32,000 nt of DNA from Trichodesmium erythraeum IMS101. Lineage in GTDB: Bacteria > Cyanobacteriota > Cyanobacteriia > Cyanobacteriales > Microcoleaceae. Both the position numbers and the translations under genes were made by a program. Positions 341 to 31,550 of this stretch are shown in pieces. The DNA is taken from positions 3,810,001-3,842,000 of the forward strand of contig NC_008312.1 in assembly GCF_000014265.1 (NCBI RefSeq). Reading direction: 5' to 3'. Below the pieces are notes generated by a model. The model saw only the letters and a program-made list of their open reading frames with translations, did no database searches and was not told the origin of the DNA. Each line of letters starts with the position of its first letter. Position 1 is the stretch's first letter.

Positions 341-877
341 TAGTTTTACCCTTGTATTTCACAAAAAAATATCCTATTTTTATTGGGAAAATCCTATTTA
401 TTATGTTGAACAAAAAAATACATTAAAAAAAATAAAAACAACCATGATCATAGAATATCATAATTGTTTTGTCAATTTTAGGAAATAACCTTTCTCGGGA
501 ATTTTTTTGACCAGTAGGTGTAGGCATAAATAAATCAGAACTTACCCAAATATGTGAAATTATACACCATTTGTAGAAGTAGCTTTACTATATAATAGTA
601 AATAAGTAAGTCCTGTAAACATTAAAACAAAAAATATCAAAAAGAAGCCAAAAGTTACCTTTCAAACACTTGGTTTTTATAATTTTTTTAGGCTTCGATA
701 GTATTTAGAGTAAACTTTTGCACTTCCCTTTTCAGGAAAATGCAAAATAGTTTAGATAAAGTTCAATAGCTTTGTGATTCTTTCCATCCCTCCTTATAAG
801 CTCCTTAGCTTTTATAAAATAGTGACTCAATAAAAATCAAACCCCGAAAAATTAGGATTAATTTCTATTGCTTGACT

Positions 878-956: not shown

Positions 957-2324
957 TTAATGCCCAATTCCCACATACTGAAAACCAGCAGCTTCCAACT
1001 GTTTACGATCGCAGAAATTCCGACCATCAACAAACAAATTATGCTCCATCGACTTCACCATCTTCCCATAGTCTAACTTTTGAAACTGTGCCCAGTCCGT
1101 CACCAAAACCAAAGCATCACAAGTATCAGCAAGCCTTTCTGAGTCAGTCTCCACAAGTACACCTGTTAAACCATCACGTATACCAGACTGAGAAATAATT
1201 GGATCATAAGCCTTCACCTTTGCCCCCAACCTATTCAACTCTTGAATCAAATCTAGAGAAGGTGCATCCCGCATATCATCAGTATCAGGTTTAAAAGTCA
1301 AACCCAATAACCCAATAGTCTTACCCTTGAGAATTTTCAAATACTGCTGTAACTTATCCACCACTATCATCCGTTGACGCCTGTTCACCTCAACTGCTGC
1401 TTTCAACAAATGTGCTTCACAACCATAGTCATCAGCAGTATGAACCAAAGCAGAGATATCTTTCGGGAAACAGGAACCACCCCAACCAAGACCAGCCTGT
1501 AAAAACTTATTACCAATACGAGAATCTAATCCGATACCCTTAGCAACCTGAGTCACATCTGCACCTACGCGATCGCATATATTAGCAATCTCATTCACAA
1601 AACTAATCTTAGTTGCCAAAAAAGAATTAGCAGCATACTTAATCATTTCTGCAGAGCTCAAATCTGTAATTACCACTGGCACTGGTGGCAGAGACTGTTC
1701 ATCACCATACTTGCGTGTTACTAAAGGCCTATAAAGTTCCTGCATCATATCTAATGCCTTTTGACTATTACTTCCCAACACAATTCTATCTGGGTTAAAA
1801 GTATCAAAGATAGCCGAACCTTCACGCAAAAACTCTGGGTTACTAACTACATCAAACTCTACTTCAATCTCTGTACGAGTTCCCCCTTCTTCTTTTTTAT
1901 GTTCCTCAACACCATCCAAAACAATTCTCCGTACCCAGTCACCAGATCCAATAGGTACAGTTGATTTATTAACAATTACTTTGTAACCTTTAATCATATG
2001 AGCACCTATACCCTTTGCTACTGCCTCCACATAACGAGTATCACTTTCTCCTGTCGGCAGTGGAGGAGTACCAACAGCGATAAATAAAATATCACCATGC
2101 TCGACCCCCACTTTCAAGTCAGATGTAAACTCTAGCAAACCAGTTTTAGTACTACTTTGCATCAACTCAGACAGTCCTGGTTCGTATATTGGAGACTGTC
2201 CTGATTTTAACAACTTAACTTTTTCTTCATTGTTGTCTATGCAAATTACATGGTGTCCTATATAAGACAAACAAACTCCCGTCACTAAACCAACGTAACC
2301 AGTACCAATAACACAAACACGCAT
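957..2324 (-). CDS. ugd: UDP-glucose 6-dehydrogenase
   Basis: N-terminal Rossmann motif MRVCVIGTGYVGLVTG, the catalytic-Cys motif GWGGSCFPKD, and full-length similarity to the UDP-glucose/GDP-mannose dehydrogenase family. Start moved to the internal ATG at 2324 (Met17 of the track ORF). That start gives the canonical N-terminus and is preceded by GAGGA about 8 nt upstream. Confidence 0.93.
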   Translation of the reverse strand: MRVCVIGTGYVGLVTGVCLSYIGHHVICIDNNEEKVKLLKSGQSPIYEPGLSELMQSSTKTGLLEFTSDLKVGVEHGDILFIAVGTPPLPTGESDTRYVEAVAKGIGAHMIKGYKVIVNKSTVPIGSGDWVRRIVLDGVEEHKKEEGGTRTEIEVEFDVVSNPEFLREGSAIFDTFNPDRIVLGSNSQKALDMMQELYRPLVTRKYGDEQSLPPVPVVITDLSSAEMIKYAANSFLATKISFVNEIANICDRVGADVTQVAKGIGLDSRIGNKFLQAGLGWGGSCFPKDISALVHTADDYGCEAHLLKAAVEVNRRQRMIVVDKLQQYLKILKGKTIGLLGLTFKPDTDDMRDAPSLDLIQELNRLGAKVKAYDPIISQSGIRDGLTGVLVETDSERLADTCDALVLVTDWAQFQKLDYGKMVKSMEHNLFVDGRNFCDRKQLEAAGFQYVGIGH

Positions 2325-2517
2325 ATTTATATCCTCTAAAATTTTAACAACAGAAAGAAAAAATATTTTCATAAAGATTAAACTGTAATATTCTTTCTTG
2401 TTTATTGAGATCTAACTTAATTTTGCCAACTAGTAGCACAAAAAAGATAACTGAAAATTACTACAGGTAACACTAGATTTAAGCTAACAGTTACAAACTC
2501 CTCACACTCTTATCCTT

Positions 2518-5500
2518 TTAGTTTTTTGGCAATTCATTTTTGAGTCGCTCTCGAAAATCTTCTATAGTCAATTTTAACCCTTCTTCAAGAAAAACAGTTG
2601 GCTCCCAACCCAAATATTTTTTCCCACGAGTAATATCTGGTTGTCGTTGTTTTGGATCATCTTGTGGTAGAGGTTTATATATTATCTCTGTACCTGGGTT
2701 AACCATTGTTTGAATTTTCTGAGCTAATTCTAATATTGTATATTCTCTTGGGTTTCCCAAGTTAACTGGCCCGATAAAATCCTGATTCATTAACCGAATA
2801 AACCCTTCTATCAAATCTGAAACATAACAAAAACTTCTGGTTTGGGAGCCATCACCATAGACTGTTAGAGGTATCCCTTTTAAGGCTTGTACAATAAAAT
2901 TGCTAACAACTCGACCATCATTTTCTAACATTCTAGGTCCATAAGTATTGTGAGCAAAAACATTGTAGCTTCCCCCTATAAAGTTCTCATAATTTGGCAC
3001 GGAGAAATCATACACATAATCATCTATTTCAAACTCCTCAATACTTTCTATTTTTCCCCAAGCAATATCACCTGTAGTTAGAGCTGATATTTTCTGCTCA
3101 ACCTTAGACAAATTATGAATATTTTTATCTTCTAATCCCTCTATTATTATTCGATAAATTTTGGCAATATCTTCCTCATTTACCTCTATTTCTGACACAT
3201 CTGCTACCAACCCAAATTTAGATAAAATCAATACTAATTTTTCAGCAACTAACTGACTATCAGTTTTAAATTCGAGATAGAAATTTAGTTGATTTTCTAG
3301 GTTATTCCCAGCAACGAATCCCTTCAAAAATCTAATTAATTGTTGTTCAGGTAGTTGTAAAATCCAATTAGGAATATCTTTTTCTTGATTCCCAAAATTT
3401 AATCCATATCCGATTAAATCAACCAGAATTTTAGACTTAATACTTATATATCCTGAATCATTAATTTCCGACTTATATTCAAAGATTCTTTCTATTAATT
3501 CTATAACTTTTTCTAGTTGACTAGGTTCCCCTTTCAACACAACTTCATTTTTGATCAAACTTCCCCGAGCTACATAAAAGCCTAAGAACCATAATAATTC
3601 TTCTACATTGTCTATCCAATTTTTAATTGCCTTTTTAGATAAATAGCAAACTTTATCTTTTTCCGATAGAGGAAGTTCTAAATATTTCCATAGATGCCAA
3701 GGAATTTGATTTTTTGCTTCATAAGTTTTCAATATCGAATAAAATTGACTAGGGCTTAAACTTTTTGCCAATAAATACTCCCTCATCTTATCTCCATACT
3801 TTTCAATATAAGAGATTGTATCTTCACTTTCTACATATATTTCTTCTTGAATTAATATTTTATCTGTAATGTGGAATGGCTCTAAAGGCTGTTCCAAAAA
3901 ACTGATATAACTAGGAATTCCTATTTCATCTCCTACCTTTATCTCATTTCCGAAAACTGCTTGAGGTTTATTATTTTCATTTCTCGTAAATAGACTATGA
4001 TCTTCTGTGATTTTTATTTGTTTACCCCAAGTAATTTTTATCTTAAAACCCTTCTTCTTGACATGATGTTTCCAAATTGCAGAAATTGGTTTAATTACCG
4101 TTTGATAATTTTCATCAAAACAAGGCACTGATACACTTGATATATCCCCATTAATTCTATCATAGCATTCTGCAAAAGTTTCATAATACAGTTTTTTAGC
4201 AATATAATAAAGTACCTTTTGATCTCCAGTCAAACTATTAAAAATTCTAGCCACTCTAATATCAACATTATTTTGGCGATGGTAATCAAAAGCTAAAGTT
4301 TCTGCTACTCGCTTCCCCTCATCGTAACATTGACCGCACCAAGCAGCACGCCCATTTCGTCTTACAAAAACCACATGGTTTGTGACATTAACACAATAAA
4401 CTTTTCCTACATAATGGAACCTTTCTGGCACAACTAAATTTGCATCCTCAGCAGGTCGAATATTAACTTGATAAAGGTCACGCCCCACTGCATGAGAAAC
4501 TACTGTAGCCGCATAACCACAACGAAGTGCTAACTCTTGTATATCATCAGCTAATCGCTTAGATTTACTATAATAAGTGTAATGATTTTTTTGTTCTGAA
4601 TTATCACCCATTATCAGTGCTTTAAATAGAATTAATAACTGTCGTTTTGATAGTTTCAATAATTCGCGAGGAATATATTTTTCACCAGACTTACCTAAAG
4701 GTAATAACATCTCAGCTAGCTGTTTACTACAAACCCGAAATTGATGTTTATCTGAATCAAATAAAATTTCACTAAAATTAAATCCTAAACGGCGTAAACA
4801 ACTAGCTATTTTCAAAGCTAATTCAGAGTTTTCTTGACCAATTAATATATTATAGTCTGCTACATAAGCATCATTTCCCCCTACTACTCGCAAGCTTTTT
4901 TTTACATCAACTCTACCTTCAGAAATGTAATAACCTAAAAATTCTAGCCAGTCATCCATAAAGATTTTTTCTACTTTTCTATGAGAATTTATAGGGCTTT
5001 TTCTTAATTCCAACCATTCTTCTTTTTCTCCCTCAAAATCTCCTCCAGTTAACACCTCTAAACTCTGCCAAAGTTTAGCTTCATCTGCCCTAATAAACTC
5101 TAAATTACCAGTTTTATTACGCACATACATCCAGTGATTAGGAGTCACACAAAAATCAAAGTTAGTATTAGCAAAACGGTACATTTCTCCAATATATGAT
5201 TGTACAATATACTCCTCAGGAATATGATATTCAACTTTACCTTCTGAGTTTAATGTTGCTACTTTAACTTCTGATTGTAGATTTGGAAAAGCTACCCAAC
5301 CTGCTTCAGTCAAAATTTCAGTTTTAGAATCAAAACAGGAGCGAATTCCAATACAATTAACATTACCTCTATACTCTTCTGTTTGAGGATGTACATCTGG
5401 GTCGCCATATACTTCAGATGTAGAAGCCAAAAAGAATTTTGCTTTTACTCTTTTGGCTAAACCTAACATATTTAATGTCCCCATTACATTTGTTTTAATT

Positions 5501-5769
5501 GTCTTGACGGGGTTGTACTGATAATGTATTGGACTAGCAGGACAAGCTAGATGATAAATTTGATCTACTTCTAACCTAATGGGTTCTGTAATATCGTGGC
5601 GAATTAACTCAAAGCTAGGATTATTTAACCAATTATAAATATTATGTTTATTGCCAGTGTAAAAATTATCAAGGCACAGGACTTCATGGCCTTGTTCTAT
5701 TAATCTATCAATAAGATGAGAGCCCAGAAAACCTGCGCCACCTGTTACTAATATTCTCATAATTTCCAC
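2518..5769 (-). CDS. UDP-glucuronate decarboxylase / NAD-dependent sugar-nucleotide epimerase-dehydratase (UXS-like) precursor carrying two inteins
   Basis: The extein segments aa 1-144, 481-511 and 942-1083 join to about 317 aa with SDR/UXS hallmarks: [24 protein letters not shown] (the YxxxK catalytic motif), RIFN|TYGPRM and GDGSQTRSF. The remaining 766 aa are two intein insertions. Met4 ([11 protein letters not shown]) is an alternative start. Confidence 0.92.
2947..4236 (-). mobile_element. Intein 2 (430 aa, precursor aa 512-941) with a degenerate LAGLIDADG domain
   Basis: Starts with Ser ([10 protein letters not shown]). Block B is [18 protein letters not shown]-like motifs are [14 protein letters not shown] and [14 protein letters not shown]. 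Block F/G is [24 protein letters not shown], followed by the +1 Thr of TYGPRM. Codons checked in DNA: Ser512 at 4234-4236, Asn941 at 2947-2949, Thr942 at 2944-2946. Confidence 0.9.
4330..5337 (-). mobile_element. Intein 1 (336 aa, precursor aa 145-480) with a LAGLIDADG homing-endonuclease domain
   Basis: Starts with Cys ([14 protein letters not shown], block A). Block B is [18 protein letters not shown]-like motifs are [14 protein letters not shown] and [14 protein letters not shown]. Block F/G is [24 protein letters not shown], followed by the +1 Cys of CYDEGKR. Codons checked in DNA: Cys145 at 5335-5337, Gln480 at 4330-4332, Cys481 at 4327-4329. Confidence 0.88.
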
Positions 5770-5956
5770 TATTAAAAAATGTAATTTGTTATGGTTTTTA
5801 ATGGGTGATTAAATAACCATACTAAATTTAATTATACACCAACAAGTACAGCTTCAAAATATAATTCAAAAGATAATTCAAAAGTATTAGATAAACTTAT
5901 CAAAAACCTTTTATATTTATTGCTTATAGTTTAGTCATAAATTGTATTATCTCTTT

Positions 5957-6002
5957 GAGGATTATCTACTTTTCTCATGGAGGATTATCTACTTTTCCCA
6001 TG
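5957..6002. repeat. 23-bp tandem duplication (2 units, 1 mismatch)
   Basis: gaggattatctacttttctcatg (5957-5979) is followed directly by gaggattatctacttttcccatg (5980-6002), in the ORF-free spacer upstream of the UXS-like gene. Confidence 0.9.
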
Positions 6003-6900
6003 ATAGTTTTTCAACCAATTCTAGTTTCACCTGAACACCAAAATCTAATTCTATTATCATGTTTACCCTAGCCGTTCAATTTTTCAATTACTTTTTCATC
6101 CTTTCTGGCATTTTTTAGACTCCTAAACCCCTCTTCAATTTTGCTTCCTACTTACCAGACACCATAATTTTAATTTACCTTTTAAATTGTAATAGACATA
6201 CCTATGCACCTTTGAATATCCTATATGCTTTAACCATATTTGTAATTCATTATAACTATTGAAGTCTTCTACTTATCTCGTTAGTCTCTGAGTTTTTTTT
6301 CCTCTGGAGAATATTTTTTTAGGTCAACTAACAATTTTTTTCTTGTTTAATAAACCTTCAACAGCAAGCTTTCACAACTTTAGCAAACCATAATGATATA
6401 GCTATAGGATGACATCCCAATAAAATTGATATATATTTAATAGTATCCCCTGCTCCTATTTTTAGCCTATTAACATACCTCTGCTTTTGGCTTCAGTTGG
6501 AATTGCTATCTGTTGAGATAACTTTTATCTCAGTTATTTACCTCATTCAAGAATATCTAGTTTAACAAGACAGACCATAACTATACTATCTACTGTTTTG
6601 ACATCAGTTTAAATATAACATTCTTTTTCCTAAATTCTATAAGGTTATTTATTAAAAAACTTACCATTAAATGGGTAAGCAAAATAAATTACACACTTTA
6701 AAAGCTCAAATCCAACCCTTGCATAAAAATTCTTTGTGCTAATATTTTTTTCTAACTACCTACCAGTTATCTGATAATTACCTCTATTATAGAAGAGTGG
6801 ATAATTTTTTTATCCACACATCATCTAGAAAAATTATCAGAGTCTCAAAAAAAAATACTTAGAGAAACGCCAGCAATATTTTGTAGAAGAACTAAAAACC

Positions 6901-7908
6901 ATGGCAAATATTACAGAACTCCAAGCAAATCTCTTAAAAATGCAGCAACTACTAAACGCTGCCGACAATGAAACTAAAAAGAAAACTTTTCAAGATATTG
7001 TTAATAATTTATCTCAACAATTAGAAAACGAAAAATCTAAATTAAACCCTCTTACAGCAGAGGAATTAAAAGTTAATCAGCCTCCCAAAAGAAAGATAAT
7101 TAAACAATCAACTCAGCAGGCACAAACTTCAACTCAAAAACCTCAAGAATTACATCCGAAATATAAATCTAAAATTGAACTTAAATCAGAAGTTAAACTA
7201 GAAGAAAAATCAGAAAACCAAGAATATGAAAGTTTATTACCAAAGCAGGATTATCTTTTTCAAGGTTTAGGAGTTCTATACGGTAAAATAATTCAAAGAT
7301 ATGAGAACAATGATAATTATTACAACGTAATTATCAACGATAAAACCTATGAATTAATTATTGTTTATCCTAGAGTTAGAGACTTTATTAAAAAACATTA
7401 TAGCCCTGAAAAAGACAGATACTTAACTGTTTATCCCAACCTGGTACATTATCCACAAACTAGAGAAAAAAATAAGCCTCCTAAAATAAGTTTTACTATT
7501 ATTGCTGCAAATGACTCACCATACTTAGAGTTGGAGCCCAATGAATTTAAATTATTTGGACTATGGCAATTTATAGCTGTGTCCAAATGTCCTGTAATGA
7601 GTATTCATAGAAATCGGGAAAAAGATGGAAACGATCGCGTATGGCCTCTCAAAACAAAATTCAAGGATAATAATAAGTTACACAAAAATCTAACTAGAGC
7701 TAATCATGTTCCTTTATTATGGAAAAATGCACCTGTTAAGCCTTTTAGGTTTAACCCTAGACTTGATAAGGATCAACAAGGCGATCGCTATTTCTGCCAA
7801 GTGAAAGCTAAATTTCTTGCTGATCGAAGTGTTTGGGGTTTCCACGAGTTACTTGCAGAACCTACTCTCGATATTCCCAAGTTCTATAAGCCTATAAAAG
7901 TAGTTTGA
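6901..7908 (+). CDS. Hypothetical protein: low-complexity or coiled-coil K/E/Q-rich N-terminal third plus a C-terminal globular domain
   Basis: Intact 335-aa ORF flanked by long ORF-free DNA. The C-terminal roughly 220 aa has ordinary globular composition (e.g. FKLFGLWQFIAVSKCPVMSIHRN, HVPLLWKNAPVKPFRFNPR). One HIP1 site and one near-HIP1 site (7633) lie inside it. I do not recognise a family. Confidence 0.6.
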   Translation: MANITELQANLLKMQQLLNAADNETKKKTFQDIVNNLSQQLENEKSKLNPLTAEELKVNQPPKRKIIKQSTQQAQTSTQKPQELHPKYKSKIELKSEVKLEEKSENQEYESLLPKQDYLFQGLGVLYGKIIQRYENNDNYYNVIINDKTYELIIVYPRVRDFIKKHYSPEKDRYLTVYPNLVHYPQTREKNKPPKISFTIIAANDSPYLELEPNEFKLFGLWQFIAVSKCPVMSIHRNREKDGNDRVWPLKTKFKDNNKLHKNLTRANHVPLLWKNAPVKPFRFNPRLDKDQQGDRYFCQVKAKFLADRSVWGFHELLAEPTLDIPKFYKPIKVV

Positions 7909-8609: not shown

Positions 8610-11600
8610 CAGAGATATTAATAAAAAACTTACTAAAAAAATAGAATAGGTGCAAAAACCGATGAGGAATGAGGAGCAGACGGTTACATTTAATCTTTTG
8701 TTTTTTAAAGATGTTATTTATTTGGGTAAGGAGGCGATCTATATTTAGTATCTTAGCTAGACCCTTGAGGTTAGGAGCTAAGTTATTTATCCATTGCTCT
8801 TTTTCCTGAAAATATCCTTTTAAATAGTTATTAGTCCAATTGATTAGAGTTTCTAAATCTTCAGCAGATGACTTTTCGACTATAGGATACTGACTATTAG
8901 CAGTAATAATAAACGTGATAATTTTGTCTCTGCTGATATACCACTCTATCATAGCAGTATCTTGTTCCATCAGGTTTTGAATATCCCTGAACAGAATAGG
9001 TTCTACTCTCTCAGTTAAGGTGAAACTGGGATCTATATCTTTAATTTGATTTAGTACCTCATCTAATTCCTGCCGTGATTTTTGTAATTCTTGCTGTAGG
9101 GGTTTTTGTGAAGTTTCAACAGTTGTTGTTCCTGGACTTCTGATTTACTTACCTACCTGATTTTGCTGAACGCTGTTTTATAACTATCTGTAATTGTCTT
9201 TCCAGCGATGGAATGTTTCGTCGCAGTCGATCTAGCTCCAGGAGAATTTCTTGAGGAATGTTACCTTTAGGATAGAGTTCGCGTTTGACAAGGAGTTCAA
9301 CGAGGGTGAGGGCTTTGGTGCGTTCTGCTGTTTCTATGGCTTTATACTATTGCTCTAAATTGATGTATATTTGCACCAGATTTTGATAAACTGATATTAC
9401 TTCTGCTATAATCTCTTGGTAGCGATCGTCGGTGGTTGCCCAACTGCAGCTGAGTTCCACTACAGTTATGGCTTTTTCATAGTTGTCGGCGGCAAGTTGC
9501 CAGTTTTGGTTGTCGAAATATAGGTCGCCTAAGTTGCAGGTAGTGATAAGATGTTGGATAGGGTCTTCTTCTTGGGTGCACACCTGCAAAGTTTGTTCGC
9601 ATGCAGCAATGGCTGCTTCTATATTTTCAGTTTTGTCTCCCCTTATTCTGTATAAAGTAGGCAATGCCGAGATTATCTTGAGTTCTTGCCCAGTCGATAG
9701 GGAAGTCAGTTTGGGTATACACCAGCAAAGCTTGTTGGCATGCAGCAATGGCAGCTTCAATATTTTCGGCTTGGTCTCCCCTTATTCTGTTAATGTAGGC
9801 AGCACCGAGATTATTTTGAGTTTGTGCCCAGTCGATAGGGAAGTCAGTTTGGGTGCGCACCAGCAAAGCTTGTTGGAATGCAGCAATGGCAGCTTCAATA
9901 TTTTCGGCTTGGTCTCCCCTTATTCTGTTAATGTAGGCAGCACCGAGATTATTTTGAGTTTGTGCCCATTCCATGGGGAAGTCAGTTTGGGTAAACACCA
10001 GCAAAGTTTGTTGCCATGCAGCAATGGCAGCTTCAATATTTTCGGCTTTGTCTCCCCTCATTCTGTTAATGTAGGCAGCACCGAGATTATTTTGAGTTTG
10101 TGCCCAGTCGATAGGGAATTCAGTTTGGGTGTACACCAGCAAAGCTTGTTGCCATGCAGCAATGGTGGCTTCAACATTTTCGGCTTGGTCTCCCCTCATT
10201 CTGTTAATGTAGACATTCCCGAGATTATATTGAGTTTGTGCCCATTCCATGGGGAAGTCAGTTTGGGTAAACACCAGCAAAGTTTGTTGCCATGCAGCAA
10301 TGGCAGCTTCAATATTTTCAGCTTGGTCTCCCCTCATTCTGTTAATGTAGACATTCCCGAGATTATATTGAGTTTGTGCCCAGTCGATAGGGAATTCAGT
10401 TTGGGTGTACACCAGCAAAGCTTGTTGCAATGCAGCAATGGTGGCTTCAACATTTTCGGCTTGGTCTCCCCTCATTCTGTTAATGTAGGCAGCACCGAGA
10501 TTATCTTGAGTTCTGGCCCAGTCGATAGGGAATTCAGTTTGGGTGTACACCAGCAAAGCTTGTTGCAATGCAGCAATGGCAGCTTCAATATTTTCGGCTT
10601 TGTCTCCCCTTATTCTGTTAATGTAGGCAGCACCGAGATTATTTTGAGTTCTGGCCCAGTCGATAGGGAATTCAGTTTGGGTGCGCACCAGCAAAGCTTG
10701 TTGCAATGCAGCAATGGCAGCTTCAATATTTTCGGCTTTGTCTCCCCTTATTCTGTAAAAGTAGGCAGCCCCGAGATTATATTGAGTTTGTGCCCAGTCG
10801 ATGGGGAAGTCAGTTTGGGTATACACCAGCAAAGTTTGTTGCCATGCAGCAATGGCAGCTTCAATATTTTCGGCTTTGTCTCCCCTTATTCTGTCTCTGT
10901 AGGCAAGGCCGAGATTATTTTGAATAGTTGCCCATTCCATGGGGAAGTCAGTTTGGGTGTGCACCAGCAAAGCTTGTTGGCATGCAGCAATGGCAGCTTC
11001 AATATTTTCGGCTTTGTCTCCCCTTATTCTGTAAAAGTAGGCAGCCCCGAGATTATCTTGAGTTCTGGCCCAGTCGATGGGGAAGTCAGTTTGGGTATAC
11101 ACCAGCAAAGCTTGTTGGCATGCAGCAATGGCAGCTTCAATATTTTCGGCTTTGTCTCCCCTCATTCTGTTAATGTAGGCAAGGCCGAGATTATCTTGAG
11201 TTCTGGCCCAGTCGATGGGGAAGTCAGTTTGGGTATACACCAGCAAAGCTTGTTGGCATGCAGCAATGGCAGCTTCAATATTTTCGGCTTTGTCTCCCCT
11301 CATTCTGTTAATGTAGGCAACGCCGAGATTATTTTGAGTCATTGCCCAGTCGATGGGGAAGTCAGTTTGGGTGCGCACCAGCAAAGCTTGTTCGTATGCA
11401 GCAATGGCAGCTTCAATATTTTCGGCTTTGTCTCCCCTCATTCTGTTAATGTAGGCAACGCCGAGATTATTTTGAGTCATTGCCCAGTCGATGGGGAAGT
11501 CAGTTTGGGTGCGCACCAGCAAAGCTTGTTCGTATGCAGCAATGGCAGCTTCAATATTTTCGGCTTTGTCTCCCCTCATTCTGTTAATGTAGGCAAGGCC

Positions 11601-13592
11601 GAGATTATATTGAGTTTTTGCCCAGTCGATAGGGAAGTCAGCTTGGGTGCGCACCAGCAAAGCTTGTTGGCATGCAGCAATGGCAGCTTCAATATTTTCG
11701 GCTTTGTCTCCCCTCATTCTGTTAATGTAGGCAAGGCCGAGATTATCTTGAGTTCTGGCCCAGTCGATGGGGAAGTCAGTTTGGGTATACACCAGCAAAG
11801 CTTGTTGCAATGCAGCAATGGCAGCTTCAATATTTTCAGCTTTGTCTCCCCTTATTCTATAAATGTAGGCAAGGCCGAGATTATTTTTAGCTTTTGCCCA
11901 GTCGATAGGGAATTCAGTTTGGGTGTACACCAGCAAAGCTTGTTGGCATGCAGCAATGGCAGCTTCAATATTTTCAGCTTGGTCTCCCCTTATTCTATAA
12001 ATGTAGGCAATGCCGAGATTATTTTGAGTCATTGCCCAGTCGATAGGGAAGTCAGTTTGGGTGCGCACCAGCAAAGCTTGTTGGAATGCAGCAATGGCAG
12101 CTTCAATATTTTCGGCCTTGTCTCCCCTCATTATGTTAATGTAGGCAGCACCGAGACTATTTTGAGTCATTGCCCAGTCGATAGGGAAGTCAGTTTGGGT
12201 GCGCACCAGCAAAGCTTGTTGGAATGCAGCAATGGCAGCTTCAATATTTTCGGCCTTGTCTCCCCTTATTCTGTAAAAGTAGGCAGCCCCGAGATTATAT
12301 TGAGTTTGTGCCCAGTCGATGGGGAATTCAGTTTGGGTGTGCACCAGCAAAGCTTGTTGGAATGCAGCAATGGCAGCTTCAATATTTTCGGCCTTGTCTC
12401 CCCTCATTCTGTTAATGTAGGCAGCACCGAGATTATATTGAGTTTGTGCCCAGTCGATGGGGAAGTCAGTTTGGGTATACACCAGCAAAGCTTGTTGCCA
12501 TGCAGCAATGGCAGCCTCAACATTTTCGGCTTGGTCTCCCCTCATTCTGTTAATGTAGGCAGCACCGAGATTATTTTCAGTTGCTGCCCATTCCATGGGG
12601 AAGTCAGTTTGGGTATACACCAGCAAAGCTTGTTGCCATGCAGCAATGGCAGCCTCAATATTTTCGGCTTTGTCTCCCCTTATTCTCTCAGTGTAGGCAG
12701 CGCCGAGACTATTTTGAGCTTTTGCCCAGTCGATGGGGAAGTCAGTTTGGGTATACACCAGCAAAGCTTGTTGCCATGCAGCAATGGCAGCTTCAATATT
12801 TTCAGCTTGGTCTCCCCTTATTCTATAAATGTAGGCAATGCCGAGATTAATTTTAGCTCTTGCCCAGTTTATCGGGAAGTCAGTTTGGGTGAACACCAGC
12901 AAAGCTTGTTGTAATGCAGCAATGGCAGCTTCAATATTTTCGGCTTTGTCTCCCCTTATTCTGTTAATGTAGGCAGCGCCGAGATTATTTTGAGTTTGTG
13001 CCCAATTTTCCCGTTGACTATCAGAGGTAAAGACTTTTAGCATTACTTCATAACCTGCAATACTAATTTCCATTTTGTTTGTTTTGTTACCCAGAGGAAA
13101 TTGCTGAATGCGGTTACTGAAAATACCAATAGATATAGCTATATCTTCTGCTACATCCGCCTCCACTTCAGAAAATTTAGCAGTCGCCCAGTTTCGCAAT
13201 ATATCAGCAAAGCTATCATCAAGTTTATCTAAGTTTTGCTGTAGGAGTGGGTAGACAACTTTCGAGTCACCCTTGCTTTCTGCAGTTGCCTCCAATACCT
13301 CTTCTAAGAAATTCAAATATTCTGCCGATGAGTAATGAGTTGAGGGAGAAAATTCTGAAGTTTCTAGTAACTCTACAAGCTGACTCCTGAGATGGCGTAA
13401 AAAATTAGCAGCGTTTTGAGCATTTTCGTCATCATTTTCTGCCAGTTGTTGTGCACAAAGTTCCATTATTTCGAGTAACCCTTCATCTACCAACTCTTGG
13501 TTCGTTTGGAGGATTTTTTCTACCTCACTGCCAGGGGAATTTAGCAGTTGGTCGATGAGGTTGATGTATGCTTCTTTGCGTTTGTTGTCCAT
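8610..13592 (-). pseudogene. TPR-repeat / CHAT-domain protein gene, disrupted and 3'-truncated
   Basis: ORF 9627-13592 holds an N-terminal helical domain plus 24 units of a 46-aa TPR-like repeat. The coding continues in other frames. A 25th diverged repeat and linker run to the TAG at 9347-9349. The same frame then continues (YKAIETAERTKALTLVELLVKRELYPKG...LERQLQ) to a TAA at 9149-9151. A third frame is open from 9144 to 8491 (EVLNQIKDIDPSFTLTERVEPILFRDIQNLMEQDTAMIEWYISRDKIITFIIT...NRLLLIPHRFLHLF), which is typical of the entry into a CHAT domain. The catalytic part of CHAT is absent. Confidence 0.75.
9540..13010 (-). repeat. Tandem array of about 25 units of 138 bp (46 aa), coding, TPR-like
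   Basis: Unit consensus is INRMRGDKAENIEAAIAAxQQALLVYTQTDFPIDWAxTQxNLGxAY. The landmark gcagcaatggcagcttcaatattttc recurs every 138 bp. Units 11281-11418 and 11419-11556 are identical base for base. Confidence 0.95.
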
Positions 13593-16051: not shown

Positions 16052-17158
16052 ATGCAAACATTAGACAATGAAAACAGAAACACAGTTGAAAAGCCTGAAT
16101 CTACTAACAGCAGAGGAATCTTCTGGATACCATTATGGCGATCGCTAGGCTGGTCTTTTGAAGCAACAGAAGATGAAGGCGCTCCACTGCTAAGAGGGAA
16201 TATCAGGTTCAAAGACCTATCCGGGCAATTATTGGGAGCCCACGTAGCACATGCTGGCTTGATAGTGCTATGGGCAGGTGCAATGACCTTGTTTGAACTA
16301 TCCCACCTTGATCCTAGCTTACCAATGTATGAGCAGAATCTAATTTTACTGCCCCATCTAGCAACATTAGGTATTGGTATAAAAGCAGGTGGGGAAGTAA
16401 TTGACACCTATCCTTACTATGTTATCGGCATGCTGCATCTCATCAGCTCTGCTGTTTTGGGTGCAGGAGGTATTTATCATGCCGTTTTAGGTCCAAAAAA
16501 GCTTGATCCAAAAGGCTTTGGCTACAACTGGGAAGATGGCAATAAGATGACAACAATTCTAGGTATCCATCTAGTGTTGTTAGGACTTGGAGCAGCACTA
16601 TTAGTGATAAAAGCAACAGCTTTAGGCGGTATTTATGATCCACTAGTAGAAAAGGTACGACTAGTACAGCCAAACCTAAATCCTGTCAGAATTTTCGGCT
16701 ATCTATTTGGCTATAGCCCTAATGGCTGGACGATCACTGGTATGGCTAGCGTCGATAATCTCGAAGACGTTATCGGTGGTCATGTCTGGGTAAGCCTACT
16801 TTGTATTGTTGGCGGTCTATTTCACATTGTCTCCAAGCCTACAAGTTGGGCAAAAAAGATACTAATATGGTCGGGAGAAGCTTACTTATCTTATAGTTTG
16901 GGAGCACTAGCGATCGCAGGCTTCAGTGTAGCTGTATTCGTCTCCACAAACGAAATTGTTTATCCTAGCATATTTTATGGCCCTATTGGGGGTAACTATG
17001 CCCGGGTTAGTCTAGCCGGTGTTCATGCTACATTAGGTTTTCTAGCTTTACTAGGACATTTATGGCACGCCAACCGAGCTCGTGCTGCTAAACGTGGCGT
17101 ATCTTATGGAACCTTCTTTAACTATATAGCTCTAAGGGCTCAAGTATCTACAACTTAA
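16052..17158 (+). CDS. IsiA/Pcb-type chlorophyll-binding protein (CP43-like, lacks the large lumenal loop), copy 1 with extended termini
   Basis: Conserved CP43/IsiA blocks: [89 protein letters not shown] and [10 protein letters not shown]. At 368 aa it is about 100 aa shorter than PsbC. The N-terminal extension of about 45 aa is unusual. Confidence 0.9.
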
Positions 17159-17538
17159 TAGCTGAAAGTGCAGAAAGTGCAATAAGCGAAAAGGTTATAA
17201 AAAATGTGTAAGTATGCCAAAGCACACTTCTATATAGCTAATACCATTTTACTGAAGTCATAGGTTCATGCATTCATGCATGAATACTTTAAAATTTCAA
17301 AACTTTGACGCGCTCAATAATTTGAGAGAATTATTTGACACTTAAAATTAGAAACTATTTGTGACATCTTTAAAATGAAAGTGAATTAGTATAAGAAGCT
17401 CACACCTAAACCTATGCTGCACGAGCAAAAAGTAGAACTTCCCTCGTTAGTATAATCTAGTTTCAGCTATTCCATAAATACTAACCTTTGTAGTTAAACC
17501 AATAAATTCGATGATCTTAAACAAGGAGAAAAATCGCG

Positions 17539-18570
17539 ATGACTGTCGCCACTGATGATAACGTGCAAATTCCTTGGCGAGCAGGTAATGCTCGGCTTGT
17601 TAACCTATCAGGAAAACTATTGGGCGCTCATGTAGCCCATGCTGGGTTAATTGTACTTTGGGCTGGTTCTATTACCTTATCTGAAGTCGGGAACTTTGAT
17701 CCGTCTTTACCAATGTACGAACAAGGATTAATTGTAATACCAAATCTAGCTCGTTTAGGACTTGGAGTTAGTGAAGGGGGTGCGGTTGTAGATACCTATC
17801 CCTATTTTGTAATTGGGGTATTGCATTTAATTAGTTCGGCGTTTTTAGGAGCTGGTGGTATTTTCCACGCTCTCAAAGGCCCAGAAAAACTAGAAGAAAA
17901 ATTTTCCTTTTTTGGTTATAGGTGGGATGATCCAGGCAAAATGACAACTATCCTGGGTATCCATCTCGTATTGTTGGGATTTGGTGCTTTGTTGCTTGTA
18001 GCAAAAGCAATGGCATATGGTGGATTATACGATCCAGTCATTCAGAATGTGCGGGTAATTTACGATCCAACTTTGAACCCCACAACCATTTTCGGCTACT
18101 TATTTGGTACACAAGGGCGTTTCTGGCTAGCTGGTGTCAACTCTTTAGAAGATGTAGTAGGTGGTCATATATGGATTGGTGCTATATGCATTGTGGGTGG
18201 TATCTGGCATATGAGAACCGTACCATTTAATTGGGCAAAAGGGTTATTTGTATGGTCAGGAGAAGCCTATCTATCTTATAGCATTGGAGCAGTAAGTTTA
18301 ATGGCATTTATAGCCACACTATTTGTATCTGTTAACTCCCTAGTATTTCCTACAGAATTTTACGGACCCACCTTAACTCTAGTCTTTGATCGCTTTCCTG
18401 TATTTGTTAGTTCTGATGGAGCCTTAACTGCAAGGGTATGGTTAGCTAATGCCCACTTCTGGTTAGGCTTTTTCTTCCTACAAGGACACATATTCCATGC
18501 CTTACGAGCAGCAGGATATAGCTTTATCGAAGGCAGAGTCATTAATTCTACAAGAGGTCAAGTAAGTTAG
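17539..18570 (+). CDS. IsiA/Pcb-type chlorophyll-binding protein, copy 2
   Basis: 343 aa with the same conserved blocks ([32 protein letters not shown]..., [36 protein letters not shown]). GGAGAA lies 9-14 nt upstream of the ATG. Confidence 0.92.
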
Positions 18571-18572
18571 TT

Positions 18573-20141
18573 ATGAGTGTAACTCAATCAACAAATCCAT
18601 TAAGGTTTTTAGGATTTTCCACAGACAATAATGTTGATGTTACGAACTATGTTGGTAATTCCCAAGAACCCTATTCCTGGTGGGCAGGTAATTTTCGCTT
18701 TGTTGACCTATCTGGGAAATTATTAGGCGCTCACATTGCCCATGCCGGCTTAATTGTACTCTGGGCCGGTGCTATGACTCTATTTGAGTTATCCAGATTC
18801 GACCCTAGTTTACCTATGTACAACCAGGGGCTAATTTTGCTTCCCCACATGGCTACTCTGGGTTTAGGAGTTGGAGCAAATGGGGAAATTATCGATACCT
18901 ATCCTTATTTTGCTATTGGTGTTGTTCACCTAGTTAGTTCAGCAATTTTAGGAGCTGGTGGGATTTACCATGCCGTACTTGGACCTGAGAAACTCGACGA
19001 AAAAGGATTTGGCTATCAGTGGAATGATGGTAACAAAATGACTACTATTCTTGGCATTCATCTAGTACTACTAGGGATTGGAGCATTGATGCTGGTAGTC
19101 AAAGCCGTTTATGGTAGTGGTTTGTACGATCCGGCGATCGCCAATGTACGAGTGATTACTGAACCAACTCTGAATCCACAAACTATCTTCGGGTACCTGG
19201 TAGGTATCACTCCTGATGGCTGGACATTGAAGGGAATGGCTGCAGTCAATTCTTTAGAAGATGTAGTAGGCGGTCATATATGGATTGGCGTCATCTGCAT
19301 TTTAGGAGGTTTGTGGCATATTAATACTGCCCCTACTAAATGGGCTAAAGGGTTATTTGTTTGGTCCGGAGAAGCATATCTTGCCTACAGTCAGGCAGCT
19401 CTAGCTTACATGGGCTTTTTCGCAGCTTACTTTGTCTGGGTAAATGATACAGTTTATCCCTCAGTATTTTATGGTCCTGTGGGAGTGACTAACGTTGATG
19501 GAACTATTACTCCTCGTACCTGGTTAATGTTGTTCCAACTTATTTTTGCCTGTCTGCTACTGGCGGGTCACTTTTGGCATGGCCTCAGATCCAGAGCGAT
19601 CGCTAGTGGATTTGTCTTCAGTAGTCTGAAATTCAATCCCGGTGCTCTCTATGGAGACGCTCAATTCAATAACGAATCCCTAGTTACAGGTATTGTGCAG
19701 CCGTACCAAAACAACCCCCAGTTGGGTAACCTGGCAACCCCAATTAACTCCAGTCAGCTAACTCTAACTTGGGTCAGAAACTTGCCAATTTATCGCAATG
19801 GTTTATCTCCCATTGCACGAGGGTTAGAAATTGGCATGGCTCATGGATACCTGTTATTAGGACCGTTCTTGAAACTCGGACCATTGCGCAATACTGACCA
19901 AGCTCTTTTAGCTGGAGGTGGTAGTGCATCAGGATTAGTAGTAATTTTAAGTATCTGTCTGTTCGTTTATGGGATGGCAGTGTTTCAAGGTTCAAGTAAG
20001 CCAGTGGGTGTTTTACCAGAAAACCTACAAACTTATGGGCATTGGAGCATGTTTACATCTGGTTTCTTGATAGGCGGAATAGGTGGTGTAATTTTTGCCT
20101 GCTTTATTCTGTTAGAAATTGGCCGAGCAGGAATTGTTTGA
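18573..20141 (+). CDS. IsiA/Pcb-type chlorophyll-binding protein fused to a C-terminal PsaL-like domain
   Basis: aa 35-345 are CP43/IsiA-like. aa 374-522 align with PSI subunit PsaL ([57 protein letters not shown]...[22 protein letters not shown]). The ATG lies 2 nt after the stop of copy 2, which indicates an operon. Confidence 0.93.
19692..20138 (+). other. PsaL-like domain of the fusion protein
   Basis: The PsaL signature motifs listed above, with three predicted helices. A linker of about 30 aa ([25 protein letters not shown]) separates it from helix VI of the CP43-like part. Confidence 0.88.
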
Positions 20142-21661: not shown

Positions 21662-21729
21662 AATTGAGCAGTTTTAGTTTTCATTTTTCGCTAACATTAA
21701 GTTATTTTCCAACAACTCTACTAACTAAA

Positions 21730-22440
21730 ATGACAATTCCTTTACTTTACTATCCACTCTCTAGTCAAAATCATCGGGTTCAAGGATTTGAGGTTCCAGG
21801 AGATGAACATCCCAGACAGCAAACTCTGGACAAGCTACCAACTGGTACAGAGATAGATGAAATCATCGGGGCAGCCTATCGGCAAATTTTCAACGAGCAG
21901 CAAACAATTACAGCTCATCAACAGCTTTATTTAGAGTCTCAACTTCGCAATGGTCAGATTACAATTAAGGATTTCATGCGAGGTTTACTGCTTTCAGACT
22001 CATTCCGGCGACTGATTTATGATACTAATAGTAACTATCGTTGTGTTGAACTATGTATTCAAAGAGTTTTAGGACGTCCCGTCTATAACAATAAAGAGAA
22101 ACTTAGTTGGTCTATTATATTGGCAACGAAAGGACTCCAAGGTTTTGTTAATGCCTTGTTAGACAGCGAAGAATATGAAAAACACTTTGGCTATAATTGT
22201 GTTCCTTACCAACGTCGGCGGATTTTGCCCCAGCGCATTAAAGGGGAGTTACCCTTTGCTCGGATGGCTCGTTATGATAGTAATTATCTCAAACAGTTAT
22301 ATCGAACAGGGCAACTACGGAAGTTTAGTGAAGTAGTTGATGAAAGTGTTTATGTTTATCGCAAAGCCCTCATCTTTTTGTCTATATTATCTTTAGCAGT
22401 CTTATCTATTACTCTGGTTTTAGTTTTTTCAGCTAAATAA
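21730..22440 (+). CDS. cpcL: Phycobilisome rod(-core) linker of the CpcG/CpcL type with a C-terminal hydrophobic anchor
   Basis: MTIPLLYYPLSSQNHRVQGFEV matches the CpcG N-terminus. PBS-linker domain motifs are AAYRQIF, ESQLRNGQITIKDFMRGLLLSDSFRR, NSNYRCVELCIQRVLGRP, ATKGLQGFVNALLDSEEY and GYNCVPYQRRR. The last roughly 24 aa (ALIFLSILSLAVLSITLVLVFSAK) form a transmembrane helix, as in CpcG2/CpcL. Start moved to the ATG at 21730 (Met23 of the track ORF). Confidence 0.85.
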   Translation: MTIPLLYYPLSSQNHRVQGFEVPGDEHPRQQTLDKLPTGTEIDEIIGAAYRQIFNEQQTITAHQQLYLESQLRNGQITIKDFMRGLLLSDSFRRLIYDTNSNYRCVELCIQRVLGRPVYNNKEKLSWSIILATKGLQGFVNALLDSEEYEKHFGYNCVPYQRRRILPQRIKGELPFARMARYDSNYLKQLYRTGQLRKFSEVVDESVYVYRKALIFLSILSLAVLSITLVLVFSAK

Positions 22441-24376: not shown

Positions 24377-25534
24377 TCATCGTGAGTGATGAAAGCGTAG
24401 ATTATCTCTACTCAATTGATCCAGCTTGGTCACTCCCATCAATTTCATATCACGCTCAATTTCAGTGCGCATATTACCTAAAACACGCTCAACTCCTGCC
24501 CTCCCAGCAGCAGCCAATGCATAAAGATATAATCGCCCACCTGAACATGCTTTAGCTCCAACAGATAGAGCCTTGAGCACATGCGTACCGCGCTGAATAC
24601 CACCTTCGCAAATGACATCAATTTTATCCCCAACAGCATCACAAATTTCTGCGAGTTGATCGAAGGGGCTACGGGAACCATCAAGCTGACGGCCACCGTG
24701 GTTAGAAACTATAATACCCGTACAACCAATATCAATAGCACGCTTGGCATCTTCCACACTCATTATCCCTTTCAGTGCAAACTGCCCGTTCCACTGTGCG
24801 CAGAGTTTTTCAGCATCATTCCAATTCATGGATTGATCTAGCATCGTTGAAAAATAATCACCAACAGAGACTGCTAAATTCGTTCCCTGGGAGACATACC
24901 CAGACAAATGCGGCATATCGAACTTTTCTTTTGTCAAAAAGTTCCAAGCCCATGCAGGGTGAGTCGCAAAACTCATAAAGGAGCCTAGTGTTAATTTTGG
25001 TGGTGAGGTAAATCCTGTACGTAAATCACGTTCGCGATTACCACCAGTAATCGTATCGACGGTTAATGCCAACACATTAAAGTTCGCAGCTCGTGCACGT
25101 TCAAGCAACGCATCATTTAAGCCGCGGTCTTTATGGAAGTAGAACTGAAACATCTTTGGAGTGTTTGTAATCTCTGCGATCTCTTCAACAGTTACTGTCG
25201 CCAGTGAAGACACTCCAAACATTGTGCCATATTTTGCAGCAGCTCTCGCAACCGCACGCTCTCCTTCGTGATGAAAAAGGCGTTGCAATGCTGTCGGAGC
25301 ACAGTAGATAGGCATGTCTAGTTTTTGCCCCATCACTTCAACTGACATATCCACATTCTCCACACCGACAAGCACGTTCGGAATAAGATCGCATTCTCCA
25401 TAGGCTTCAGTGTTACGCCGATAGCTCTGTTCATCATCGGCAGCTCCATCAATGTAATCAAAAATTGGTCCTGGTAATCTGCGTTTTGCTAATTTTCGGA
25501 AATCCTGAAAATTGTGACAGTCATTCAATTTCAT
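24377..25534 (-). CDS. lldD: FMN-dependent alpha-hydroxy-acid dehydrogenase/oxidase (L-lactate dehydrogenase / glycolate oxidase family)
   Basis: 385 aa with family motifs: PIYCAPTA, the FMN-binding barrel, and the active-site stretch IIVSNHGGRQLDGSRSP. The substrate (lactate vs glycolate) cannot be decided from sequence alone. Confidence 0.9.
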   Translation of the reverse strand: MKLNDCHNFQDFRKLAKRRLPGPIFDYIDGAADDEQSYRRNTEAYGECDLIPNVLVGVENVDMSVEVMGQKLDMPIYCAPTALQRLFHHEGERAVARAAAKYGTMFGVSSLATVTVEEIAEITNTPKMFQFYFHKDRGLNDALLERARAANFNVLALTVDTITGGNRERDLRTGFTSPPKLTLGSFMSFATHPAWAWNFLTKEKFDMPHLSGYVSQGTNLAVSVGDYFSTMLDQSMNWNDAEKLCAQWNGQFALKGIMSVEDAKRAIDIGCTGIIVSNHGGRQLDGSRSPFDQLAEICDAVGDKIDVICEGGIQRGTHVLKALSVGAKACSGGRLYLYALAAAGRAGVERVLGNMRTEIERDMKLMGVTKLDQLSRDNLRFHHSR

Positions 25535-26240: not shown

Positions 26241-26726
26241 TTACAATTGTGTTGGGTTGGGAGCATTACCATACACTGTTTTCGGGTCAAAAGTTTTCTC
26301 CGTTTCGGTAAAAGTTAACTGAATTGGTTCTTGGGAATCAATAGCACTTTTTCCCGTAGGAATACAGCGATAAAAACAAGAACGATAACCCACGTGACAA
26401 CTAGCTCCCGAACCAGCTACTTCAACCTGCATCCACAGACAATCTTGGTCGTCATCAATAGCTAACTGCTGTACTTTTTGCACCAGTCCACTAGATTGAC
26501 CTTTATGCCATAGTTGCTGACGACTGCGACTGTAATAGTGACCTTCTCCCGTTTCAATGGTTTTAACTAAAGCCTCTTCGTTCATATAAGCGTGCATCAG
26601 CACTTCACCCGTGTTGGCATCGGTGGTAACGACTGGAATCAAACCATTGCAGTCAAATTTGGGAGCAAGGAGCAAACCTTCTTCTACTTGTTCTACTGAA
26701 TTTCTGGTACTAAATAGGGGATTCAT
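26241..26726 (-). CDS. hisI: Phosphoribosyl-AMP cyclohydrolase (stand-alone HisI domain)
   Basis: The core LIPVVTTD...[81 protein letters not shown] matches HisI. There is no HisE (pyrophosphohydrolase) domain, and the protein has a C-terminal tail of about 35 aa. Confidence 0.88.
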
Positions 26727-31321: not shown

Positions 31322-31550
31322 AGGCGTAATGGTTATAGTTGGTCTCAGACTTCTCCTGCAACCTTTTTATTTTTTACCCCAAAGCAAGTCAAAGAATTGC
31401 AGATTGCATTCTCGCAGATTACAGATTTACCCCTACTTAAAAGACGGTGGCAAGGGAAGTGTAGATTGTAATTTTTTGGTTAATTGTTAATTTTTGAGGG
31501 TAGATTTTAGATTTACCAATGCTTGAACGCAAAGGAACCTTTATCTACTC

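Follow-up and report, generated by a model that had tools for sequence, protein, structure and literature searches.

Genes that hold two close, independent inteins have been described in archaea and bacteria. Experiments with the MCM inteins of Haloferax mediterranei have shown that alleles with two inteins mostly invade those with a single one (PMC10643990), and of the two DnaB inteins of M. smegmatis, which differ widely in splicing rate, one is reversibly blocked by oxidation via a cysteine (PMC6195587). Departures from the canonical intein C-terminus are documented as well. Inteins with a terminal Gln splice, the PolII inteins of Pyrococcus abyssi and Methanoculleus marisnigri slowly and the ribonucleotide reductase (RNR) intein of Chilo iridescent virus better with Gln than with Asn, and the penultimate His is missing from about 5% of functional inteins (PMC4031507). 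Here we analyze the gene Tery_2478 of the marine cyanobacterium Trichodesmium erythraeum IMS101, which lies in a window of 32,000 nucleotides (contig NC_008312.1, positions 3,810,001 to 3,842,000; all coordinates below are positions in this window). We conclude, with a probability of roughly 0.9, that it encodes a UDP-glucuronate decarboxylase (UDP-xylose synthase, UXS) precursor with two unrelated endonuclease-bearing inteins, both of which would be excised by class-1 protein splicing.

The precursor gene and its host enzyme

Read from a GTG, the gene forms a single open reading frame (ORF) of 1083 codons at 2518..5769(-) in the ORF list of the window. Removing two segments of 336 and 430 residues in silico leaves a 317-aa protein that aligns without a gap to human UXS1 (hUXS1) over residues 4-312 (PDB 4gll, E = 1.1e-135), while every listed non-UXS structure matches at 1e-41 or weaker. 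On this alignment, the first insertion site (RS/CYDEGK) separates hUXS1 residues 145 and 146, so that a single residue lies between it and the catalytic Tyr, and the second (RIFN/TYGP) separates residues 176 and 177, a correspondence for which chance does not remotely account. The exteins contain the Rossmann motif GGAGFLG (GxxGxxG), the Thr/Tyr/Lys triad and the UXS-specific Ser, Glu and Arg, so that all six hUXS1 active-site residues (T118, S119, E120, Y147, K151 and R277) are kept in the spliced product; the roles of these residues, including the UXS-specific Ser119, Glu120 and Arg277, have been described (PMC3438964). Cyanobacterial UXS proteins without inteins (308-323 aa) are colinear with the spliced product and share 84-88% identity with it, and the inserts are hence not part of the enzyme family. 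[quoted passage not shown] The mass predicted from the sequence is 124.6 kDa for the precursor; splicing would turn it into a ligated product of 36.0 kDa and release inteins of 38.7 and 49.9 kDa.

A preliminary description of this locus, made from the letters and the ORF list alone, had drawn the boundaries of both inteins and of the 93-bp host segment between them exactly to the base. Its figure of about 70 percent intein corresponds to 766 of 1083 residues (70.7%), and the two insertion sites that it named were recovered on the hUXS1 alignment. It had also taken the host for a UXS-type sugar-nucleotide gene followed by ugd, which the hUXS1 match and a TuaD match of the neighbour substantiate, and the alignment to intein-free homologues that it proposed showed that the inserted segments are not ordinary domains of the family. 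The reading frame that it gave is correct as well, but most likely not the start codon. An ATG at residue 4 (window position 5760) is kept in every relative among the aligned related loci, whereas the position of the GTG is occupied by GTA, GCG, TTG or ATG in closer relatives; in distant loci the sequence at this position is unrelated, in some of them with an in-frame stop just 5' of the ATG. Since the ATG is conserved, the GTG position is variable and the GenBank product has 1080 aa, the true coding sequence (CDS) is most likely 2518..5760.

This 1080-aa product is identical to ABG51687.1 (Tery_2478, T. erythraeum IMS101; UniRef100_Q111Y7) and is found on 22 or more independent metagenome contigs, while the 1083-aa product from the GTG has no exact database record. 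The label of the protein is 'Protein splicing site' in GenBank and UDP-glucuronate decarboxylase in UniRef, with COG1372 and COG0451 entered in its cluster record. The two-intein gene is thus already known as a protein-splicing case in public annotation, and the supposition of the preliminary description that it had been described before is right in substance. The intein-registry names 'Ter Ndse-1' and 'Ter Ndse-2' ('Ndse-1' and 'Ndse-2' in that description) presumably belong to these two inteins, although the searchable literature did not confirm them. A search of the same literature returned no relevant paper describing the two UXS inteins, their splicing, the Gln terminus or their distribution among relatives. 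NCBI gene models of this gene are short in T. erythraeum 21-75 (697 aa), in several Okeania genomes and in a few Trichodesmium and Microcoleaceae metagenome-assembled genomes (MAGs; 559-730 aa), and these short models carry the name 'GDP-mannose 4,6-dehydratase'. The precursors that the loci actually encode have about 738-1110 aa according to the inteins present, and automatic annotation appears to start within or just 3' of intein 1.

Intein 2

Intein 2 is recognized by Pfam PF14890 (Intein_splicing, 1.1e-22) and by the TIGRFAM models of the N-terminal (TIGR01445, 8.4e-08) and C-terminal (TIGR01443, 1.2e-03) splicing regions, and it matches PI-PkoII (4.9e-21) across all three of its parts, the N-terminal Hint, the endonuclease and the C-terminal Hint. 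It carries the class-1 hallmarks Ser1, a TEDH block B that is invariant in 26/26 aligned intein 2 sequences, a FAHN end and Thr+1, and by these motifs it is a canonical class-1 intein. The nucleophile pairs of both inteins, Ser1/Thr+1 here and Cys1/Cys+1 in intein 1, are invariant in all related loci.

The endonuclease domain of intein 2 is degenerate. The catalytic acids of PI-PkoII (SEG and GDG) face ARG and GNN, respectively, and the loss of both acids extends through the Trichodesmium/Okeania/Dapis clade, in which the motif 1 acid is replaced by Q, R or K throughout; the Halothece group keeps both motif acids (FYLAEG and FWEGDG). Because both catalytic acids are lost, we predict that this domain is dead and is not a functional LAGLIDADG homing endonuclease. 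In Okeania sp. SIO3B5 (locus L011), intein 2 contains an additional in-frame insertion of about 39 aa directly after the degenerate LAGLIDADG motif 2.

Intein 1 and its family

No Pfam, TIGRFAM or NCBIfam model of a Hint domain or intein-splicing region matches intein 1, LAGLIDADG_3 being the only hit, and a single-sequence search of the PDB returned nothing significant. We therefore rely on more sensitive comparisons. A family profile built from 82 sequences reached PI-PkoII (5.5e-22), TliVMA (1.5e-19) and the AceL NrdHF intein (8e-11), and an AlphaFold2 (AF2) model of high confidence (pLDDT 95.1, pTM 0.92) was placed by Foldseek closest to the endonuclease-bearing VMA inteins (E = 4.5e-16, TM 0.66), followed by PI-PkoII, PI-SceI and PI-PfuI. 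Because of the profile matches to solved inteins, the modelled fold and the existence of natural intein-less alleles, intein 1 is best described as a Hint-fold intein in spite of the missing matches. The preliminary description had looked to Hint models at residues 145-480 and 512-941 to decide the matter; they hit the latter segment and not the former, and for the former their silence is overridden by profile, fold and alleles.

Among the 82 profile members, 80 have Cys1, and 77/79 have C, S or T at +1; the sequences typically end in Gly-Asn, with Gly at block G position 6 and the terminal Asn each found in 77/82. At block F position 4, 58/82 have Cys and 20/82 have Asp, and at block G position 5 a Cys is found in 31/82. 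Relatives with 46-73% identity reside in UXS genes of other bacteria, and more distant ones (27-38% identity over the full length) in ThyX, dCTP deaminase, GTP cyclohydrolase I, M23 peptidase and other hosts. With no fewer than 571 confirmed relatives added from the viral contigs of IMG/VR, this sampling depicts a large and mostly phage-borne family.

The match to the AceL NrdHF intein and the Cys at block F position 4 raised the possibility of a class 3 (WCT) intein, which we ruled out because the family keeps Cys1, whereas class 3 inteins usually have no nucleophile at position 1, and because intein 1 has Met (not Trp) at block B position 12 and Cys (not Thr) at block G position 5, leaving the block F Cys as the only matching residue. 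A common origin of the two inteins was likewise rejected, as only their endonuclease domains align (26% over 184 aa).

In contrast to intein 2, the endonuclease of intein 1 may possibly still be active in T. erythraeum, judged by its motifs. Motif 1 is intact (SEG), and in motif 2 the Asp is retained next to an Asn in place of Gly. This GDN is found in the T. erythraeum sequence alone among the 82 family members. Okeania sequences have GDG together with an intact SEG, and other Trichodesmium MAGs have DDN or GDA, a pattern which suggests that the endonuclease motif decays after fixation in Trichodesmium. One further allele (L014) contains a 20-aa in-frame insertion in the endonuclease domain of intein 1.

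The Gly-Gln terminus of intein 1

When block G is inspected for its usual His-Asn, intein 2 has both residues (FAHN) and intein 1 has neither (W-C-G-Q), a feature absent from the preliminary description. In our view the Gly-Gln end marks intein 1 as a variant and does not exclude it from the inteins, because functional inteins with either deviation have been documented (PMC4031507). The T. erythraeum sequence is the only one of the 82 profile members with a terminal Gln, yet it does not stand alone among its close relatives. In Trichodesmium, Okeania and two uncultured lineages, each of the 13 complete sequences of the UXS intein 1 has a terminal Gln, encoded by CAA in 11 and CAG in 2, and a Prochloron intein 1 fragment ends in Gln as well. 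As the codon varies synonymously across the 13 alleles, the Gln itself is under selection. UXS inteins of Halothece, SW_9_44_58, Dactylococcopsis and several metagenomic sequences end in Asn. The comparison thus depicts a switch from Asn to Gln that is lineage-wide in Trichodesmium/Okeania and rare in the family (about 1-2% of sampled members).

Of 80 viral family members, 78 end in Gly-Asn and one in Gly-Gln. The latter, L102 (IMGVR_UViG_3300009503_000396, match 2501-3550), ends W-S-G-Q before a Thr+1 and apparently represents a second, independent switch from Asn to Gln.

Natural alleles and selection

A scan of species-representative genomes (best match 80-81% identity) yielded 26 related loci, which were dissected by tblastn. 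Both inteins are present in L005-L015, L024, L025 (partial) and L030, intein 2 only in L016-L023 and L027-L029, and intein 1 only in L026. Insertions always occupy the same two codon boundaries and empty sites are precise. None of the 26 loci contains a stop codon or frameshift, and the middle extein is 90-100% conserved in every one of them. Alleles with intein 1 only, intein 2 only or both occur in closely related Trichodesmium, Okeania and Dapis genomes. Since these close relatives have alleles that lack one or the other intein and are otherwise contiguous in their coding sequence, the inserted segments are not ordinary domains.

Trees of the exteins, intein 1 and intein 2 resolve the same three deep clades, and both inteins are therefore old residents. 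On a finer scale they behave differently. In at least five places, one of two sister taxa has intein 1 and the other lacks it, and the nucleotide identity of intein 1 is out of step with that of its surroundings: between two Okeania clades intein 1 is 92-94% identical, the exteins about 92% and intein 2 86%; within one Okeania clade the values are 93-95%, about 96% and 94%; and against a distant uncultured lineage 80-82%, 77% and 64%, respectively. Such a pattern is expected if intein 1 still homes into alleles that already hold intein 2, and it agrees with the experimental finding on invasion by double-intein alleles (PMC10643990). Intein 1 in Okeania hence shows signs of a mobile element, with the presence/absence and identity patterns as indirect evidence of a putative homing cleavage, and intein 2 is, on the same comparison, a near-fixed and vertically inherited resident.

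Selection was estimated as the ratio of nonsynonymous to synonymous substitution rates (dN/dS) by the Nei-Gojobori method within the clade. The exteins gave 0.056, the Hint and endonuclease parts of intein 1 0.23 and 0.31, and the Hint part, linker and dead endonuclease of intein 2 0.125, 0.26 and 0.33, respectively. Because the exteins are strongly constrained yet would be functional only after two excisions, these values argue indirectly that both inteins splice. For the purifying selection on the dead endonuclease of intein 2, the simplest idea is that splicing may structurally need the domain, as found for the Haloferax volcanii polB intein (cited in PMC10643990).

Genomic context

The order uxs, ugd is conserved in 27/30 related loci. 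By homology, the product of ugd supplies UDP-glucuronate, the substrate of UXS, and the pair would yield UDP-GlcA and then UDP-xylose. A terminator-like hairpin lies 3' of ugd, and the uxs-ugd interval has no terminator-like site except for one within coding sequence. A promoter scan was uninformative (27 sites versus 27.9 expected by chance), and Rfam had no match in or near uxs. The roughly 1.1 kb upstream of uxs contain no ORF of at least 80 aa and no Rfam match. Beyond this region follows a divergent ORF of 335 aa that has no Pfam or NCBIfam match, adjoins uxs on identical T. erythraeum metagenome contigs as well and was not found by tblastn in the Okeania, Dapis or Halothece loci.

Elsewhere in the window, three tandem isiA-like (CP43') genes encode chlorophyll-binding proteins, the third of which joins an IsiA-like N-terminal part to a C-terminal part of the PsaL type (photosystem I subunit XI), and a full-length Rfam match to the IsrR antisense RNA lies opposite each copy. 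A 138-bp tandem repeat corresponds to 46-aa TPR_10-type repeats of a 1321-aa protein; the regularity of these repeats also keeps open an antisense ORF of 1143 codons that is probably not a gene.

Table 1. Features of the window (strand - is the reverse strand; aa numbers of the precursor count from the GTG)
Feature	Position	Strand	Size	Remarks
uxs precursor CDS, UDP-glucuronate decarboxylase with two inteins (most likely extent)	2518..5760	-	1080 aa	from conserved ATG; GTG at 5769 is 9 nt further upstream
N-extein	5338-5769 (5338..5760 from ATG)	-	aa 1-144 (aa 4-144 from ATG)	Rossmann GGAGFLG; T-S-E residues (hUXS1 T118/S119/E120); ends ...IGIRS; gapless hUXS1 alignment
Intein 1	4330-5337	-	aa 145-480, 336 aa	CFDSK...AWCGQ, then Cys+1
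Intein 1, N-Hint	~4978-5337	-		
Intein 1, block B TPNH (TxxH)	5134..5145	-		Thr in 77/82, His in 82/82 family members
Intein 1, LAGLIDADG endonuclease domain	~4450-4968	-		
Intein 1, LAGLIDADG motif 1	4915..4947	-		acidic Glu kept (SEG); E or D in 82/82 family members
Intein 1, LAGLIDADG motif 2	4597..4629	-		Asp kept, next Gly replaced by Asn (GDN); family D 81/82, G 80/82
Intein 1, C-Hint	4330-4440	-		
Intein 1, C-terminal Gln codon CAA (block G position 7)	4330..4332	-		preceded by Gly instead of His; read directly
Middle extein	4237-4329	-	aa 481-511, 93 bp, 31 aa	catalytic Tyr and Lys (hUXS1 Y147/K151)
Intein 2	2947-4236	-	aa 512-941, 430 aa	SLTGD...FAHN, then Thr+1
Intein 2, N-Hint	3901-4236	-		subparts from Pfam/TIGR and PI-PkoII alignment
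Intein 2, linker	3595-3900	-		
Intein 2, degenerate LAGLIDADG domain	3082-3594	-		
Intein 2, LAGLIDADG motif 1	3562..3594	-		catalytic acid replaced by Arg (ARG); aligns to PI-PkoII LLGYYVSEG
Intein 2, LAGLIDADG motif 2	3298..3330	-		catalytic Asp replaced by Asn (GNN); aligns to PI-PkoII FLEGYFIGDGD
Intein 2, C-Hint	2947-3081	-		
C-extein	2521-2946 (2518..2946 with stop codon)	-	aa 942-1083	starts TYGPRM; UXS-specific Arg (hUXS1 R277)
ugd, UDP-glucose 6-dehydrogenase	957..2372	-		NCBIfam TuaD 1.4e-156; matches begin at aa 17-18; likely start Met17, ~2324
Terminator-like hairpin	716-747			3' of ugd
Region upstream of uxs	5770-6900		~1.1 kb	
Tandem repeat upstream of uxs	5950-6002		23-bp unit, 2.3 copies	
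ORF divergent from uxs	6901-7908	+	335 aa	
Tandem repeat	9572-13004		138 bp, 24.9 copies	91% identity
Protein with TPR_10-type repeats	9627-13592	-	1321 aa	
Antisense ORF	9483-12914	+	1143 codons	probably not a gene
Three isiA-like genes	16052-20141	+		
Third isiA-like gene	18573-20141	+	522 aa	
IsrR antisense-RNA matches	16529-16703, 17923-18100, 19020-19197	-		118-126 bits
Phycobilisome linker polypeptide	21664-22440	+		
FMN-dependent L-lactate dehydrogenase or glycolate-oxidase-like protein	24377-25534	-		
Phosphoribosyl-AMP cyclohydrolase	26241-26726	-		
metH	27647-31321	-		
Heptamer repeat CAATCTC	31550-31611		8.9 copies	perfect; just upstream of metH

Discussion

From the anatomy, folds, motifs, allele polymorphism and selection described above we infer the splicing itself as well as its order and rate. 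In the proposed mechanism, each intein of the translated 124.6-kDa precursor would fold its Hint domain and then excise itself by the class-1 pathway. The pathway would start with an acyl shift, N-S or N-O, at Cys1 in intein 1 and at Ser1 in intein 2, continue with transesterification to Cys+1 or Thr+1, respectively, and with cyclization of the last intein residue, which in intein 1 would be a glutamine, and close with a final acyl shift. Cyclization of glutamine is chemically slower in some of the Gln-terminated inteins that have been investigated. Both excisions would be needed to assemble the Tyr-x-x-x-Lys centre and the substrate-binding strand with RIFN-TYGP into a 36-kDa enzyme, which would act on UDP-glucuronate provided through the co-oriented downstream ugd. 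Concerning the history of intein 1, we propose that the terminal Asn of a family whose hallmark is Gly-Asn became Gln in the Trichodesmium/Okeania lineage, and that decay of endonuclease motif 2 has begun in T. erythraeum while the element is mobile in Okeania.

Several observations weigh against this conclusion. Intein 1 lacks both canonical block G residues and is unseen by curated Hint models, and the searchable literature holds no experiment showing splicing of either intein. The dependence of UDP-xylose supply on both splicing events moreover assumes that the IMS101 genome has no intein-free UXS paralogue, which would relax the need for splicing; a protein search was uninformative in this respect, as no Trichodesmium protein was named among the 120 matches listed. 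Finally, a change from an Asn to a Gln codon requires two nucleotide substitutions and passes through His or Lys, neither of which is able to cyclize, so that the fixation of the terminal Gln is hard to explain.

Among the alternatives, the one that holds up best is conditional splicing, in which one intein, most plausibly intein 1, would gate the maturation of UXS, slowly or in a redox-sensitive way, and hence the supply of UDP-xylose. Besides its Gly-Gln end, intein 1 has four cysteines at its junctions (Cys1, Cys315 at block F position 4, Cys334 at block G position 5, and Cys+1), those of blocks F and G recurring in the family at the frequencies given above, and its Gln is kept in 13 alleles through synonymous codon variation; the oxidation-sensitive M. 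smegmatis DnaB intein provides a precedent (PMC6195587). Close relatives without intein 1 show no other change at the site, however, so that such gating would be dispensable, and the patchy distribution and homing signal fit a selfish element rather than a gate. A Gln need not mean slow splicing either, given the RNR intein of Chilo iridescent virus that splices better with it (PMC4031507). We consider conditional splicing unlikely. The same holds for the more elaborate proposal that the Gly-Gln end and the cysteine cluster form a slow or redox gate by which these filamentous marine cyanobacteria would tune UDP-xylose supply after translation and that, in addition, the dead endonuclease of intein 2 (dN/dS 0.33) has been kept by purifying selection for splicing or co-opted for some other function.

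It could further be argued that intein 1, owing to its Gly-Gln end, no longer splices and that the T. erythraeum gene is a dead or decaying allele or gives cleavage products only. Block G without His and Asn, the failure of the Pfam and TIGRFAM splicing models and the uniquely altered LAGLIDADG motif 2 of T. erythraeum could be read in this sense. Yet a Gly at block G position 6 is usual in the family and no lesion, natural inteins with a Gln terminus splice (PMC4031507), and the Gln-ended form has been kept across lineages at or near saturation (dS >1 or not computable) and has spread horizontally. An extein dN/dS of 0.056 with six conserved catalytic residues is also hard to reconcile with a non-productive precursor, and we regard the loss of splicing as very improbable. 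A reading of the two segments as ordinary domains within some longer SDR subfamily, or as the outcome of a chimera or of faulty assembly, can be dismissed, for beyond the failure of Hint models on residues 145-480 nothing speaks for it, and it is already refuted by thousands of UXS homologues without both segments, relatives with one, both or neither at identical codon boundaries, intein folds and motifs in both segments, and the recurrence of the same protein in GenBank as well as on 22 or more independent contigs.

A UXS precursor that is matured by two excisions thus remains the preferred explanation. As a known curiosity, the gene is among the few cases of inteins in a metabolic enzyme rather than a replication protein, with two inteins that flank the catalytic Tyr-x-x-x-Lys segment only 31 residues apart. 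Our analysis adds the conserved Gly-Gln end within a phage-borne Gly-Asn family, the contrasting life-cycle stages of the two neighbours and a natural allele series. The latter offers a system in which to study the influence of neighbouring inteins on one another's homing and splicing, the survival of an intein whose usual cyclizing residue has been replaced and the reasons for which inactive endonuclease domains persist.

Compared with described systems, the spliced host protein matches hUXS1 (PDB 4gll and 2b69; PMC3438964), with a gapless fit and the same six active-site residues, but the human enzyme has no inteins, and the cyanobacterial enzyme is soluble and encoded beside ugd. Both inteins share with PI-PkoII (2cw7), TliVMA and PhoVMA (7qsu, 7qss, 7qst), PI-SceI and PI-PfuI a Hint fold with a nested two-motif LAGLIDADG domain. 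They differ from these solved inteins by an identity of only 10-18%, by a sugar-nucleotide host instead of a replication or ATPase protein, by the Gly-Gln end of intein 1 and by the absence of both catalytic acids from intein 2. With the Gln-terminus inteins of P. abyssi PolII, M. marisnigri PolII and Chilo iridescent virus RNR (PMC4031507), intein 1 has the terminal Gln and presumably its cyclization in common, although it belongs to another family and host and its Gln arose inside a Gly-Asn family. Two close independent inteins in one conserved gene are likewise found in MCM-a/MCM-d of H. mediterranei (PMC10643990) and DnaB i1/i2 of M. smegmatis (PMC6195587), and T. erythraeum itself has another multi-intein conserved gene, an RNR with four inteins (cited in PMC2874743). 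Single-intein alleles are common among UXS relatives, as would be expected from the invasion behaviour of double-intein alleles (PMC10643990). The UXS pair is set apart from these other two-intein genes by its spacing of 31 residues, by its metabolic host and by the combination of a fixed intein 2 with a dead endonuclease and a polymorphic intein 1.

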